Assembly (NCBI RefSeq): GCF_003019035.1
Contig: NZ_CP027447.1
Strand: one strand, 5' to 3'
DNA: 64,000 bases
Source of the DNA: Escherichia coli
GTDB taxonomy: Bacteria > Pseudomonadota > Gammaproteobacteria > Enterobacterales > Enterobacteriaceae
The notes beneath the pieces were generated by a model that worked only from the letters and a program-made list of their open reading frames with translations, made no database searches and was not told the DNA's origin. The position numbers and the translations under genes were made by a program. This document shows positions 1 through 58,721 of the stretch, piece after piece (position 1 is the stretch's first letter; each line of letters begins with the position of its first letter).

Positions 1-2560
1 GTTCCGCGCGCGTCTGGAAAAAGGCGAAGTGCTGGATAACTTGATCCCGGAAGCCTTCGCTGTGGTGCGTGAAGCCAGTAAGCGTGTTTTTGGTATGCGT
101 CACTTCGACGTTCAGTTACTCGGCGGTATGGTTCTTAACGAACGCTGCATCGCCGAAATGCGTACCGGTGAAGGTAAAACCCTGACCGCAACGCTGCCTG
201 CTTACCTGAACGCACTAACCGGTAAAGGCGTGCATGTAGTTACCGTCAACGACTACCTGGCGCAACGTGACGCCGAAAACAACCGTCCGCTGTTTGAATT
301 CCTTGGCCTGACTGTTGGTATCAACCTGCCGGGCATGCCAGCACCGGCAAAGCGTGAAGCTTACGCAGCTGACATCACTTACGGTACGAACAACGAATAC
401 GGCTTTGACTACCTGCGCGACAACATGGCGTTCAGTCCTGAAGAACGTGTACAGCGTAAACTGCACTATGCGCTGGTGGACGAAGTGGACTCCATCCTGA
501 TCGATGAAGCGCGTACACCGCTGATCATTTCCGGCCCGGCAGAAGACAGCTCGGAAATGTATAAACGCGTGAATAAAATTATTCCGCACCTGATCCGTCA
601 GGAAAAAGAAGACTCCGAAACCTTCCAGGGCGAAGGCCACTTCTCGGTGGATGAAAAATCTCGCCAGGTGAACCTGACCGAACGTGGTCTGGTCCTGATT
701 GAAGAACTGCTGGTTAAAGAAGGCATCATGGATGAAGGAGAGTCTCTGTACTCTCCGGCCAACATCATGCTGATGCACCACGTAACGGCGGCGCTGCGCG
801 CTCATGCGCTGTTTACCCGAGACGTCGACTACATCGTTAAAGATGGTGAAGTTATCATCGTTGACGAACACACCGGTCGTACCATGCAGGGGCGTCGCTG
901 GTCCGATGGTCTGCACCAGGCAGTGGAAGCGAAAGAAGGTGTACAGATCCAGAACGAAAACCAGACGCTGGCGTCGATCACCTTCCAGAACTACTTCCGT
1001 CTGTATGAAAAACTGGCGGGGATGACCGGTACTGCTGATACCGAAGCTTTCGAATTCAGCTCCATCTATAAGCTGGATACCGTCGTTGTTCCGACCAACC
1101 GTCCAATGATTCGTAAAGATCTGCCGGACCTGGTCTACATGACTGAAGCGGAAAAAATTCAGGCGATCATTGAAGATATCAAAGAACGTACTGCGAAAGG
1201 CCAGCCGGTGCTGGTGGGTACTATCTCCATCGAAAAATCGGAGCTGGTATCAAACGAACTGACCAAAGCCGGTATTAAGCACAACGTCCTGAACGCCAAA
1301 TTCCACGCCAACGAAGCGGCGATTGTTGCTCAGGCAGGTTATCCGGCAGCGGTGACTATCGCGACCAACATGGCGGGTCGTGGTACCGATATTGTGCTCG
1401 GTGGTAGCTGGCAGGCAGAAGTTGCCGCGCTGGAAAATCCGACCGCAGAGCAAATTGAAAAAATTAAAGCCGACTGGCAGGTACGTCACGATGCGGTACT
1501 GGCAGCAGGTGGCCTGCATATCATCGGTACCGAGCGTCACGAATCCCGTCGTATCGATAACCAGTTGCGCGGTCGTTCTGGTCGTCAGGGGGATGCTGGT
1601 TCTTCCCGTTTCTACCTGTCGATGGAAGATGCGCTGATGCGTATTTTTGCTTCCGACCGAGTATCCGGCATGATGCGTAAACTGGGTATGAAGCCAGGCG
1701 AAGCCATTGAGCACCCGTGGGTGACCAAAGCGATTGCCAACGCCCAGCGTAAAGTTGAAAGCCGTAACTTCGACATTCGTAAGCAACTGCTGGAATATGA
1801 TGATGTGGCTAACGATCAGCGTCGCGCCATTTACTCCCAGCGTAACGAACTGCTGGATGTCAGCGATGTGAGCGAAACCATCAACAGCATTCGTGAAGAT
1901 GTGTTCAAAGCGACCATTGATGCCTACATTCCGCCACAATCGCTGGAAGAAATGTGGGATATTCCGGGACTGCAGGAACGTCTGAAGAACGATTTCGACC
2001 TCGATTTGCCAATTGCCGAGTGGCTGGATAAAGAACCAGAACTGCATGAAGAGACGCTGCGTGAGCGCATTCTGGCGCAGTCCATCGAAGTGTATCAGCG
2101 TAAAGAAGAAGTGGTTGGTGCTGAGATGATGCGTCACTTCGAGAAAGGCGTCATGCTGCAAACGCTTGACTCCCTGTGGAAAGAGCACCTGGCAGCGATG
2201 GACTATCTGCGTCAGGGTATCCACCTGCGTGGCTATGCACAGAAAGATCCGAAGCAGGAATACAAACGTGAATCGTTCTCCATGTTTGCAGCGATGCTGG
2301 AGTCGTTAAAATATGAAGTTATCAGCACGCTGAGCAAAGTTCAGGTACGTATGCCTGAAGAGGTTGAGGAGCTGGAACAACAGCGTCGTATGGAAGCCGA
2401 GCGTTTAGCGCAAATGCAGCAGCTTAGCCATCAGGATGACGACTCTGCAGCTGCAGCTGCACTGGCGGCGCAAACCGGTGAGCGCAAAGTAGGACGTAAC
2501 GATCCTTGCCCGTGCGGTTCTGGTAAAAAATACAAGCAGTGCCATGGTCGCCTGCAATGA
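1..2560 (+). CDS. secA: Preprotein translocase ATPase SecA (5' end truncated by window edge)
   Basis: Open frame continues from position 2 with no start; translated product matches SecA including the C-terminal zinc-binding tail [14 protein letters not shown]; stop at 2558-2560. Confidence 0.97.
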
Positions 2561-2579
2561 AAGCTAACAGTTGAAGTAA

Positions 2580-2606
2580 AAGGCGCAGGATTCTGCGCCT
2601 TTTTTA
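2580..2606 (+). terminator. Intrinsic terminator-like hairpin downstream of secA
   Basis: GC stem ggcgcag / tgcgcc with short loop followed by a 6-T run, 20 nt after the secA stop. Confidence 0.6.
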
Positions 2607-2619
2607 TAGGTTTAAGACA

Positions 2620-3018
2620 ATGAAAAAGCTGCAAATTGCGGTAGGTATTATTCGCAACGAGAACAATGAAATCTTTATAACCCGTCGCGCAGCAGATGCG
2701 CACATGGCGAATAAACTGGAGTTTCCTGGCGGTAAAATTGAAATGAGCGAAACGCCGGAACAGGCGGTGGTGCGTGAACTTCAGGAAGAGGTCGGGATTA
2801 CCCCACAACATTTTTCGCTATTTGAAAAACTGGAATATGAATTCCCGGACAGGCATATAACTCTGTGGTTCTGGCTGGTCGAAAGCTGGGAAGGGGAGCC
2901 GTGGGGTAAAGAAGGGCAACCCGGTGAGTGGATGTCGCTGGTCGGTCTGAATGCCGATGATTTTCCGCCAGCCAATGAACCGGTAATTGCGAAGCTTAAG
3001 CGCGTGTACGTCGGATAG
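2620..3018 (+). CDS. mutT: 8-oxo-dGTP diphosphatase MutT (Nudix hydrolase)
   Basis: 132-aa ORF; Nudix box GGKIEMSETPEQAVVRELQEEVGI; RBS-like aagaca upstream of ATG. Confidence 0.95.
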   Translation: MKKLQIAVGIIRNENNEIFITRRAADAHMANKLEFPGGKIEMSETPEQAVVRELQEEVGITPQHFSLFEKLEYEFPDRHITLWFWLVESWEGEPWGKEGQPGEWMSLVGLNADDFPPANEPVIAKLKRVYVG

Positions 3019-3044
3019 GTGTTTATGCCGCATCCGACATTTGC

Positions 3045-3100
3045 ACACGATGCCTGATGCGACGCTGCCCGCGTCTTATCAGGCCAGCGTCGCATCAGAC
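3045..3100. repeat. REP-like extragenic palindromic element(s)
   Basis: gcctgatgcgacgctg...cgcgtcttatcaggcc plus inverted copy cagcgtcgcatcag; typical enterobacterial REP palindromic unit between mutT and yacG. Confidence 0.7.
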
Positions 3101-52340: not shown

Positions 52341-53590
<1,250 letters not shown>

Positions 53591-53663: not shown

Positions 53664-56093
53664 GTGTCGTCGTTGCCCGTTGCTGCCGTCTTACCTGAGT
53701 TACTTGCTGCCCTCGATGGTGCACCGCAGGTGTTATTAAGTGCGCCGACCGGGGCCGGGAAATCAACCTGGCTGCCGCTGCAACTGCTGGCGCATCCCGG
53801 CATTAACGGAAAAATTATCCTGCTGGAGCCGCGTCGTCTGGCGGCGCGTAACGTCGCGCAACGGCTGGCGGAGCTGCTTAACGAAAAGCCAGGCGATACC
53901 GTTGGCTACCGGATGCGTGCGCAAAACTGCGTCGGCCCGAATACCCGCCTGGAAGTGGTTACCGAAGGCGTGCTGACGCGCATGATCCAGCGTGACCCGG
54001 AACTGAGCGGTGTTGGATTGGTGATCCTCGATGAGTTTCATGAGCGCAGTTTGCAGGCGGATTTGGCGTTGGCGCTGTTACTCGATGTGCAACAAGGTCT
54101 GCGTGATGACCTTAAACTGCTGATTATGTCGGCTACGCTGGACAACGACCGCTTGCAGCAAATGCTGCCAGAAGCGCCCGTCATCATCTCAGAAGGGCGC
54201 TCGTTTCCGGTTGAACTCCGTTATTTACCGCTGCCCGCGCATCAGCGTTTTGACGAAGCCGTTGCGGTAGCCACCGCCGAAATGCTGCGTCAGGAAAGCG
54301 GATCATTACTGTTATTTTTACCTGGCGTCGGAGAAATTCAGCGTGTGCAGGAACAACTGGCTTCGCGCATCGGCAGTGATGTGTTGCTCTGCCCGCTGTA
54401 TGGCGCGTTGTCGCTGAACGATCAGCGAAAAGCGATCCTCCCGGCACCGCAAGGGATGCGCAAAGTGGTGCTGGCGACCAATATTGCTGAAACCAGTTTA
54501 ACCATTGAAGGTATTCGTCTGGTGGTGGATTGTGCCCAGGAGAGGGTGGCGCGTTTTGATCCGCGTACAGGGCTTACGCGGTTGATTACTCAACGCGTTA
54601 GTCAGGCGTCGATGACGCAACGTGCCGGGCGTGCCGGGCGTCTGGAGCCGGGTATCTGCCTGCATTTAATCGCCAAAGAACAAGCAGAACGCGCTGCCGC
54701 GCAAAGTGAACCGGAGATCTTACAAAGCGATCTTTCCGGTTTGCTGATGGAATTACTGCAATGGGGATGCAGCGATCCGGCGCAGATGAGCTGGCTGGAT
54801 CAACCGCCAACGGTGAATCTACTGGCCGCGAAACGCCTGTTACGGATGCTGGGGGCGCTGGACGGTGAACGGCTTAGTGCGCAAGGGCAAAAAATGGCAG
54901 CGCTGGGTAACGATCCGCGTTTAGCGGCAATGCTGGTTAGCGCGAAGAACGACGACGAAGCTGCTACCGCGGCAAAAATTGCCGCCATTCTCGAAGAGCC
55001 GCCACGGATGGGCAATAGTGACCTGGGCGTGGCGTTTTCGCGCAATCAACCCGCCTGGCAGCAACGTAGTCAGCAACTGTTAAAACGCTTAAACGTACGC
55101 GGCGGTGAGGCAGACAGTTCGCTTATCGCGCCGCTACTTGCCAGAGCGTATGCCGATCGCATTGCTCGTCGCCGTGGGCAAGATGGACGCTATCAACTGG
55201 CAAACGGCATGGGGGCGATGCTCGATGCCGACGATGCGCTAAGCCGCCACGAATGGTTGATCGCACCGTTATTATTGCAGGGCAGCGCCTCGCCGGATGC
55301 GCGGATTTTACTGGCGCTGCCGGTCGATATTGATGAGTTAGTACAACGCTGCCCGCAGCTGGTACAGCAATCGGACACCGTGGAGTGGGATGACGCGCAA
55401 GGTACGCTGAAAGCCTGGCGTCGGCTGCAAATCGGTCAGTTGATGGTGAAAGTGCAGCCACTGGCGAAACCCTCGGAAGACGAGTTGCATCAGGCGATGC
55501 TTAACGGCATTCGTGATAAAGGTTTAAGCGTGCTCAACTGGACGGCGGAAGCGGAACAGCTACGCTTGCGTTTGTTATGCGCCGCAAAGTGGTTGCCGGA
55601 ATATGACTGGCCAGCGGTTGATGATGAAAGTTTGTTGGCGACGCTGGAAACGTGGCTACTGCCGCATATGACAGGCGTACATTCGCTACGCGGCCTGAAA
55701 TCACTCGATATTTATCAGGCACTGCGTGGATTACTTGATTGGGTAATGCAGCAACGTCTGGATAGTGAATTGCCTGCGCATTACACTGTGCCGACGGGAA
55801 GCCGGATCGCCATTCGTTACCATGAAGATAACCCGCCCGCGCTGGCGGTGAGAATGCAGGAGATGTTTGGTGAGGCCACTAATCCGACTATCGCCCAGGG
55901 GCGCGTACCGTTGGTGCTGGAGTTGCTTTCCCCTGCCCAAAGGCCGCTGCAAATCACGCGTGATTTGAGCGCCTTCTGGAAAGGAGCGTACCGTGAGGTG
56001 CAAAAAGAGATGAAAGGGCGTTATCCCAAACATGTCTGGCCGGACGACCCGGCAAACACCGCACCGACGCGACGAACGAAAAAGTATTCGTGA
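53664..56093 (+). CDS. hrpB: ATP-dependent RNA helicase HrpB (DEAH-box)
   Basis: GTG start giving MSSLPVAAVLPELL...; Walker A APTGAGKST, DEFH box ILDEFHERS; 809 aa. Confidence 0.92.
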   Translation: MSSLPVAAVLPELLAALDGAPQVLLSAPTGAGKSTWLPLQLLAHPGINGKIILLEPRRLAARNVAQRLAELLNEKPGDTVGYRMRAQNCVGPNTRLEVVTEGVLTRMIQRDPELSGVGLVILDEFHERSLQADLALALLLDVQQGLRDDLKLLIMSATLDNDRLQQMLPEAPVIISEGRSFPVELRYLPLPAHQRFDEAVAVATAEMLRQESGSLLLFLPGVGEIQRVQEQLASRIGSDVLLCPLYGALSLNDQRKAILPAPQGMRKVVLATNIAETSLTIEGIRLVVDCAQERVARFDPRTGLTRLITQRVSQASMTQRAGRAGRLEPGICLHLIAKEQAERAAAQSEPEILQSDLSGLLMELLQWGCSDPAQMSWLDQPPTVNLLAAKRLLRMLGALDGERLSAQGQKMAALGNDPRLAAMLVSAKNDDEAATAAKIAAILEEPPRMGNSDLGVAFSRNQPAWQQRSQQLLKRLNVRGGEADSSLIAPLLARAYADRIARRRGQDGRYQLANGMGAMLDADDALSRHEWLIAPLLLQGSASPDARILLALPVDIDELVQRCPQLVQQSDTVEWDDAQGTLKAWRRLQIGQLMVKVQPLAKPSEDELHQAMLNGIRDKGLSVLNWTAEAEQLRLRLLCAAKWLPEYDWPAVDDESLLATLETWLLPHMTGVHSLRGLKSLDIYQALRGLLDWVMQQRLDSELPAHYTVPTGSRIAIRYHEDNPPALAVRMQEMFGEATNPTIAQGRVPLVLELLSPAQRPLQITRDLSAFWKGAYREVQKEMKGRYPKHVWPDDPANTAPTRRTKKYS

Positions 56094-56186
56094 AGACCAA
56101 AGCAAATTTGAGAGATATCTTCTTCTGTCTTGCAACAGAAGAACAGAAAATCGGGCTTTTGCGCCTGAATATTGCGGAGAAAAAGC

Positions 56187-58721
56187 ATGGCCGGGAATGA
56201 CCGCGAGCCAATTGGACGCAAAGGGAAACCGACGCGTCCGGTCAAACAAAAGGTAAGCCGTCGTCGTTACGAAGATGACGATGATTACGACGATTATGAT
56301 GACTATGAGGATGAAGAACCGATGCCGCGCAAAGGTAAGGGCAAAGGCAAAGGGCGTAAGCCTCGTGGCAAACGCGGCTGGCTATGGCTGCTGCTAAAAC
56401 TGGCTATCGTTTTTGCCGTGCTGATCGCCATTTACGGCGTTTATCTCGATCAAAAAATTCGCAGCCGTATTGATGGCAAGGTCTGGCAATTGCCCGCGGC
56501 AGTTTATGGTCGAATGGTCAACCTTGAGCCAGACATGACCATCAGCAAGAACGAGATGGTGAAGCTGCTGGAGGCGACCCAGTATCGCCAGGTGTCGAAA
56601 ATGACCCGTCCTGGTGAGTTTACCGTACAGGCCAACAGCATTGAGATGATCCGCCGTCCGTTTGATTTCCCGGACAGCAAAGAAGGGCAGGTGCGCGCGC
56701 GTCTGACCTTTGATGGCGATCATCTGGCGACGATCGTCAATATGGAGAACAACCGTCAGTTCGGTTTCTTCCGTCTTGATCCGCGCCTGATCACTATGAT
56801 CTCTTCACCAAACGGTGAGCAGCGTCTGTTTGTGCCGCGCAGTGGTTTCCCGGATTTGCTGGTGGATACTTTGCTGGCGACAGAAGACCGTCATTTCTAC
56901 GAGCATGATGGGATCAGTCTCTACTCAATCGGACGTGCGGTGCTGGCAAACCTGACTGCCGGACGCACGGTGCAGGGGGCGAGTACGCTGACGCAACAGT
57001 TGGTTAAAAACCTGTTCCTCTCCAGCGAGCGTTCTTACTGGCGTAAAGCGAACGAAGCCTACATGGCGCTGATCATGGACGCGCGTTACAGCAAAGACCG
57101 TATTCTTGAGCTGTATATGAACGAGGTGTATCTCGGTCAGAGCGGCGACAACGAAATCCGCGGCTTCCCGCTGGCGAGCTTGTATTACTTTGGTCGCCCG
57201 GTAGAAGAATTGAGCCTCGATCAGCAGGCGCTGTTGGTGGGTATGGTGAAAGGGGCGTCCATCTACAACCCGTGGCGTAACCCGAAACTGGCGCTGGAGC
57301 GACGTAACCTGGTACTGCGTCTGCTGCAACAGCAACAGATTATTGATCAAGAACTCTATGACATGTTGAGTGCACGTCCGCTGGGTGTTCAGCCGCGCGG
57401 TGGGGTGATCTCTCCTCAGCCAGCCTTTATGCAACTGGTGCGTCAGGAGCTGCAGGCGAAATTAGGCGATAAGGTAAAAGATCTCTCCGGCGTGAAGATC
57501 TTCACTACCTTTGACTCGGTGGCCCAGGACGCGGCAGAAAAAGCCGCCGTGGAAGGCATTCCGGCACTGAAAAAACAGCGTAAGTTGAGCGATCTTGAAA
57601 CCGCGATTGTGGTTGTTGACCGCTTTAGCGGTGAAGTTCGTGCGATGGTCGGTGGTTCTGAGCCGCAGTTTGCGGGCTACAACCGTGCGATGCAGGCGCG
57701 TCGTTCGATTGGTTCCCTTGCAAAACCAGCGACTTATCTGACTGCCTTAAGCCAGCCGAAAATCTATCGTTTGAATACGTGGATTGCCGATGCGCCAATC
57801 GCGCTGCGTCAGCCGAATGGCCAGGTCTGGTCACCGCAGAACGATGACCGTCGTTATAGCGAAAGTGGCAGAGTGATGCTGGTGGATGCGTTGACCCGTT
57901 CGATGAACGTGCCGACGGTGAATCTGGGGATGGCGCTGGGGCTGCCTGCGGTTACGGAGACCTGGATTAAACTGGGCGTACCGAAAGATCAGCTGCATCC
58001 GGTTCCGGCGATGCTGCTGGGGGCGTTGAACTTAACGCCAATCGAAGTGGCGCAGGCATTCCAGACTATCGCCAGCGGCGGTAACCGTGCACCGCTTTCT
58101 GCGCTGCGTTCGGTAATTGCGGAAGATGGCAAAGTGCTGTATCAGAGCTTCCCGCAGGCGGAACGCGCGGTTCCGGCGCAGGCGGCGTATCTGACACTAT
58201 GGACCATGCAGCAGGTGGTACAACGTGGTACGGGGCGTCAGCTTGGGGCGAAATACCCGAACCTGCATCTGGCAGGGAAAACAGGAACTACCAACAATAA
58301 CGTAGATACCTGGTTTGCGGGCATTGACGGCAGCACGGTGACCATCACCTGGGTAGGCCGTGATAACAACCAACCGACCAAACTGTATGGAGCCAGCGGG
58401 GCAATGTCGATTTATCAGCGTTATCTGGCTAACCAGACGCCAACACCGCTGAATCTTGTTCCGCCGGAAGATATTGCAGATATGGGCGTGGACTACGACG
58501 GCAACTTTGTTTGCAGCGGTGGTATGCGTGTCTTGCCGGTCTGGACCAGCGATCCGCAATCGCTGTGCCAGCAGAGTGAGATGCAGCAGCAGCCGTCAGG
58601 CAATCCGTTTGATCAGTCTTCTCAGCCGCAGCAACAGCCGCAACAGCAACCTGCTCAGCAAGAGCAGAAAGACAGCGACGGTGTAGCCGGTTGGATCAAG
58701 GATATGTTTGGTAGTAATTAA
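56187..58721 (+). CDS. mrcB: Penicillin-binding protein 1B (bifunctional glycosyltransferase/transpeptidase)
   Basis: Start at [18 protein letters not shown]; 844 aa; acidic [15 protein letters not shown] tract, TM segment, Gln/Pro-rich C-terminus. Confidence 0.96.

Follow-up and report, generated by a model that had tools for sequence, protein, structure and literature searches.

Two in-frame start codons in Escherichia coli mrcB and codon-level retention of the internal start among Enterobacterales

In the stretch of Escherichia coli DNA analysed here (64,000 nt in full, referred to below as the window), a single mrcB mRNA is almost certainly translated from two in-frame start codons, giving rise to the alpha and gamma forms of the penicillin-binding protein PBP1b. 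The existence of this second start at Met46 is textbook and already known: alpha- and gamma-PBP1b have long been understood to originate from two in-frame starts 45 codons apart (PMC13423804, citing Kato 1984, Broome-Smith 1985 and Chalut 2001), and descriptions of the two mrcB start codons date to 1984-85. A major synthase of peptidoglycan, PBP1b is also targeted by beta-lactams, and the presence of two isoforms was a 40-year puzzle that has recently been resolved through FtsA-mediated recruitment of PBP1b to the divisome by the alpha tail (PMC13423804). What is mildly new here is a codon pattern at the internal site, where valine is always encoded by GTG and leucine by TTG, together with an apparent compensation in the upstream Shine-Dalgarno (SD) sequence and a possible gamma-only allele in Mixta. 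As a survey of start-codon and SD conservation across Enterobacteria has already been published (PMC11005335), any addition to it would be confined to the pattern at codon level and the compensation.

The mrcB (ponB) coding sequence spans 56187-58721 on the plus strand, stop codon included, and encodes the 844-aa alpha-PBP1b. Its product matched the NCBIfam equivalog model NF007061 (PRK09506) over residues 1-843 with 1734.8 bits against a cutoff of 1120, and TIGR02071 (PBP_1b) with 1247.6 bits against a cutoff of 717.75; this full-length, above-cutoff equivalog match identifies the protein as PBP1b, a bifunctional class A penicillin-binding protein with glycosyltransferase and transpeptidase activities. 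An 801-nt query across the Met46 site was 100% identical at the DNA level to many E. coli chromosomes annotated hrpB/mrcB and was matched in 5424 of 5426 complete E. coli genomes. The order of open reading frames in the window (sfsA, a ligT/thpR-like gene, hrpB, mrcB, fhuA) places mrcB in its orthologous position, with hrpB upstream and fhuA downstream. Both the equivalog score and the annotated E. coli identity bear out the preliminary description, which had read this region as the N-terminal part of mrcB. The open reading frame at 52341-53045 (minus strand) is presumably sfsA, judging from its protein sequence; for sfsA, a Ribo-RET study has reported an internal start that was validated (10.1101/520783). 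Elsewhere in the window, an Rfam scan gave matches above the gathering threshold for the tp2 sRNA (14360-14473, minus strand, 103 bits), STnc40 (2536-2605, plus strand, 79 bits) and naRNA4 (3009-3085, plus strand, 61 bits), and the same whole-window scan placed no RNA family at the Met46 site or close to it.

The alpha start, read directly from the sequence, is the ATG at 56187-56189 (plus strand, as are all features of the gene given below), which is also the RefSeq mrcB start in E. coli; a GGAG SD core at 56176-56179, 7 nt upstream, pairs with the anti-SD at -6.6 kcal/mol. A TTG at 56172, chosen by the open reading frame lister, was rejected as the true start in favour of 56187 on the basis of RefSeq and of the conserved N-terminus M[AS]G[ND]DREPIG, which in its longer form M[AS]G[ND]DREPIGRKG is kept across Enterobacterales. 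The 45 alpha-specific codons (56187-56321) translate into an N-terminal peptide, a basic stretch and a tract rich in Tyr, Asp and Glu. This acidic tract (residues 30-44) is encoded by a degenerate 9-nt tandem repeat (56267-56314), reported by Tandem Repeats Finder at period 9/18 and also as repeat family D1, and its length differs among strains. Inside its Glu41-Asp42 codons lies GAGGA (56307-56311), the SD-like core for the internal start, 10-11 nt upstream of the in-frame ATG of codon 46 (56322-56324), from which the 799-aa gamma-PBP1b would be made. The purine-rich string gaggatgaagaacc occupies 56307-56320, with its GAGG core at 56307-56310, 11 nt before ATG46. The gamma N-terminus then carries a basic, membrane-adjacent (KG)n tract (56329-56353), a 6-nt tandem repeat of variable length, followed by a transmembrane helix at approximately 56376-56444, placed by a hydropathy window from residue 63.

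The gene therefore has, downstream of its annotated start, an in-frame start-capable codon preceded by an SD-like sequence. Met46 stands exactly where the acidic tract gives way to the basic segment preceding the membrane helix, so a protein begun there retains a normal positive-inside membrane anchor. The position of Met46 at 56322 had been read correctly, as coordinates and translation agree to the base, and the purine-rich stretch with its SD-like GAGG(A) core and the acidic tract before Met46 are present as had been described. Support for the transmembrane region comes from Pfam PF14812, precomputed for homologous N-terminal fragments, and the helix is included in PBP1b crystal-structure constructs; residues 1-52 are absent from all solved PBP1b structures, in which native sequence begins at about residue 55-58. 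As a separate observation, a series of ATGs in the +1 frame relative to mrcB (56274-56400) arises from GAT GAN codons in the acidic tract, and some database proteins, P0185 and P0193, begin in this +1 frame before returning to the PBP1b frame; they look like frameshifted gene calls made on assemblies that contain errors.

On the proposed mechanism, initiation at GGAG-N7-ATG (56176, 56187) would yield the 844-aa alpha form, while independent binding of a 30S subunit at GAGGA-N10-ATG (56307, 56322) within the coding sequence would yield the 799-aa gamma form, the internal ribosome-binding site being encoded by the Glu/Asp codons that end the acidic tract in a predicted locally unstructured, purine-rich context. 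Gamma would thus be made without residues 1-45, and with them would lose the FtsA-binding peptide, the basic stretch and the acidic linker. The transmembrane helix and the UB2H, glycosyltransferase and transpeptidase domains would be common to both forms, which would differ in the cytoplasmic tail alone. Binding of the alpha-only N-terminal peptide to FtsA would then place alpha at the division site and gamma at the periphery.

Published experiments agree with this scheme. The gamma start has been placed 46 codons in, and an M46L substitution gives alpha alone and abolishes gamma (PMC13423804). At the division site it is alpha, not gamma, that accumulates and shows the higher activity (PMC13423804, 2026), the septal recruitment of alpha being attributed to a predicted interaction of the N-terminal peptide, in which R6 is critical, with FtsA at E303, and gamma remains peripheral in the cell (PMC13423804). 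Ribo-RET, which uses retapamulin, detected an initiation peak at the internal mrcB site in E. coli, and mrcB is listed there with infB and clpB among the internal starts known beforehand that this profiling recovered (bioRxiv 10.1101/520783). A Ribo-RET peak has also been found at the homologous mrcB site of Salmonella, where the extension is 42 residues (PMC11005335). The statement that PBP1b is made as alpha and gamma forms by alternative initiation is thus well supported by the published isoforms, by M46L (PMC13423804) and by Ribo-RET (10.1101/520783, PMC11005335), and this same body of work means that the two-band blot and the mutation of Met46 that could serve as checks have already been done.

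Considered within the gene, the Met46 site ranks high. Its anti-SD pairing of -6.1 kcal/mol is the second best of the 27 in-frame mrcB ATGs, behind only Met1 (-6.6), and the predicted local accessibility of its surroundings (-20 to +5) is likewise second among in-frame ATGs and falls at the 97th percentile of codon positions in mrcB. Within the window, pairing at or below -6.1 kcal/mol was found at 4.5% of internal in-frame ATGs of ATG-started open reading frames of at least 250 aa, and 12 of the 36 open reading frames of this size contain at least one internal in-frame ATG with equally strong pairing. When the peptide DYEDEEP was synonymously recoded, 54% of the versions paired with the anti-SD no less strongly than the native codons. 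The codons for Glu (GAR) and Asp (GAY) by their nature resemble an SD, which makes the purine-rich stretch weak evidence in a single sequence, and if E. coli is considered by itself the SD could simply follow from the acidic amino acids.

These figures are what one would point to in proposing that the shorter PBP1b is a proteolytic product of alpha, with Met46 and the purine stretch incidental to the acidic tract: in-frame ATGs preceded by SD-like sequence are common in long open reading frames, and acidic codons mimic the SD. There is in addition a third form of PBP1b, beta, that is attributed to proteolysis of alpha and is partly an OmpT artefact. We nevertheless consider proteolysis a very improbable source of gamma, since initiating ribosomes have been caught at the site in two species (10.1101/520783, PMC11005335) and M46L eliminates gamma (PMC13423804). 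To the question of whether Met46 and its SD-like stretch go beyond chance, the answer is no when they are taken alone and yes when they are taken together with their context.

Part of that context is how the site is kept in other species. A scan with a degenerate DNA pattern for DREPIGRKG, using one genome per species, returned at least 120 loci; among the matches listed, three chance loci outside the family and three that were too short were dropped to leave 114 Enterobacterales genomes, and 107 loci were fully parsed, with the Mixta locus parsed separately. Among the matches listed, the boundary codon was ATG in 74 of the 114 genomes, GTG in 32, TTG in four and not start-capable in four, such that 110/114 retain a start-capable codon at the homologous site. 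Where the residue was valine it was encoded by GTG in 31 of 31 cases (among the 107 fully parsed loci in the matches listed), with Mixta supplying the 32nd GTG, as compared with 47% GTG for the other valine codons in the first 170 codons of those genes among the same matches. Neighbouring valines near the site, again among the matches listed, are GTA or GTT. The GTG/Val lineages among the matches listed comprise a Klebsiella MAG, Leclercia, Kosakonia, Shimwellia, Superficieibacter, Serratia plymuthica and Hafnia, as well as the Erwinia/Pantoea/Winslowiella group, and Rosenbergiella and Tatumella morbirosei have leucine at the site, encoded by TTG. The species compared are related, and nominal probabilities for these counts overstate their independence; the GTG state spans roughly 8-10 separate genera or groups among the matches listed. 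A proteolytic origin of gamma needs no conservation of a start at the codon level, which is what is seen here (valine always as GTG, leucine as TTG).

The upstream sequence is also retained beyond what the protein sequence demands. SD-like pairing of -5.9 kcal/mol or stronger was present in 88% of 75 distinct Enterobacterales upstream contexts (among the matches listed), against 59% +/- 5% under a synonymous null, and 0 of 1000 simulations reached the observed enrichment when codons were synonymously resampled. Mean upstream pairing was -8.8 kcal/mol in GTG lineages versus -5.7 kcal/mol in ATG lineages among the matches listed; strong-SD GTG loci include L008, L018, L032, L034, L045, L065, L090, L099 and L121, among others, and one GTG-lineage upstream sequence, the Erwinia-type GAGGAGGTAA, pairs at -13.6 kcal/mol. 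The SD sequences of GTG lineages are also better placed, and their greater strength looks like compensation for the weaker start codon. At the other extreme, pairing is almost absent despite an ATG in Pectobacterium (-2.1 kcal/mol) and at loci L014 and L072 (-1.0 kcal/mol).

These last lineages bear on how the 30S subunit is recruited. Internal initiation might be driven mainly by low mRNA structure and an A/G-rich context, with GAGGA/anti-SD pairing playing little part, and the high predicted accessibility of the Met46 region fits such a reading, as do the few ATG lineages that manage nearly without an SD and the GAGG-ATG spacing of 11 nt, which is suboptimal (the 10-11 nt between GAGGA and ATG46 is at the long end of the workable range). 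We regard this as unlikely, because SD pairing in Enterobacterales is commoner than under the synonymous null and reaches its greatest strength upstream of GTG starts, suggesting that pairing matters. We infer instead that pairing at GAGGA, not accessibility alone, recruits the 30S subunit to the internal site.

That the alpha:gamma ratio is a selected trait, tuned across Enterobacterales, is a tentative but plausible reading of these patterns. It is based on the observation that the capacity to start is kept though the residue varies, from Met to Val (GTG only) and Leu (TTG), and as a corollary the final codons of the acidic tract may be dual-coding, specifying both peptide and ribosome-binding site. 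The GTG and TTG substitutions together with the SD compensation add modest support to the view that gamma is selected rather than leaky. In four genomes among the matches listed, namely those of Pseudescherichia vulneris, Escherichia sp. ESNIH1, Pseudenterobacter timonensis and Kluyvera genomosp. 3, the site has no start-capable codon, which indicates that gamma is not required universally; the acidic tract is kept in all four, implying that the role of the tract goes beyond hosting a ribosome-binding site.

In more distant PBP1b homologues, drawn as 50%-identity representatives from a search of 1.84 billion representative proteins, the tails are basic and very variable in length, and the same search found among them neither an acidic tract nor any segment that aligns with residues 1-45. 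These homologues are consequently uninformative about Met46 itself, and their lack of an alignable tail points to a two-start arrangement specific to Enterobacterales. One representative, P0001 (64% identical, 793 aa), has a tail of only 31 residues in which the acidic tract is absent, and carries the N-terminal sequence GHEPIGQKNKK, which resembles the FtsA-binding peptide of E. coli. The motif of this peptide may thus predate both the acidic tract and the use of two starts.

An unusual allele was encountered in Mixta sp. Marseille-Q2659 (L027), where an in-frame TAG lies inside the acidic tract, about 36 codons past the DREPIG match and five codons ahead of the internal start. The context of that start, TAGGAGGAAAGACCGGTG, has a strong AGGAGG SD followed by N7 and GTG. 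If the TAG is not a sequencing error, this organism could make only a gamma-like PBP1b, with about 40 N-terminal residues produced as a peptide of their own, and it is a possible natural gamma-only organism.

Within E. coli the site is nearly invariant, with the 65 nt around Met46 (56290-56354) identical in 5288 of 5424 genomes. The acidic and KG tracts differ in length among strains by whole repeat units, as is consistent with tandem-repeat DNA (9-nt in the acidic tract, 6-nt in the KG tract): locus L002 lacks one Asp codon of the acidic tract (-3 nt), and strain LR14 (L125) lacks an Asp codon (-3 nt) and a Gly-Lys unit (-6 nt) and has a D42E substitution in addition. GAGGA and ATG46 are kept in every E. 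coli variant inspected, including LR14 with its D42E.

The spacer between hrpB and mrcB is more variable. In K-12/BW25113 and in an O22:H8 strain, a palindromic, GC-rich repeat roughly 100 nt long (containing CTCCCTCTCCCTGTGGGAGAGGGCCGGGGTGAGGG) lies between the hrpB stop codon and mrcB, whereas the spacer of the window (56094-56186) is without this K-12 element (compared with L001, L003 and L004), and no copy of the K-12 intergenic repeat core was found anywhere in the window. Strain 11899A has a third spacer allele, in which part of the repeat element stands in place of the spacer hairpin. This hairpin, at 56120-56143 in the window, is a perfect 9-bp inverted repeat, TTCTTCTGT / ACAGAAGAA, with a 6-nt loop; it is not followed by a T-run and so is not an obvious terminator. 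A scan of 55700-56500 for sigma-70 promoters and terminators gave no promoter-like site, either near this inverted repeat or elsewhere in the range, and no signal of either kind above chance level.

Finally, the arrangement in the window can be set beside systems that have been characterised experimentally. It is the same gene as ponB/mrcB of E. coli K-12, with the same two starts, Met1 and Met46. The first 60 residues agree with the sequence printed in PMC13423804, and the 5' coding DNA is identical to that of BW25113 over codons 1-48, and the aligned 5' stretch differs only in one Leu codon of the transmembrane segment, where the change (CTG/CTA) is synonymous. In Salmonella Typhimurium, the long and short MrcB proteoforms rely on a homologous internal start in a conserved context (P0155, L095), the extension being 42 residues in place of 45 because the acidic repeat is shorter. 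Like mrcB, infB (IF2-alpha/beta) and clpB (93/79 kDa) each produce two proteins from one mRNA by means of an internal SD-like sequence and an in-frame start, and their shorter forms are missing an N-terminal module, as is gamma-PBP1b. Unlike infB and clpB, however, mrcB removes no folded domain by starting internally, but a 45-residue disordered cytoplasmic tail that serves localisation through FtsA binding.
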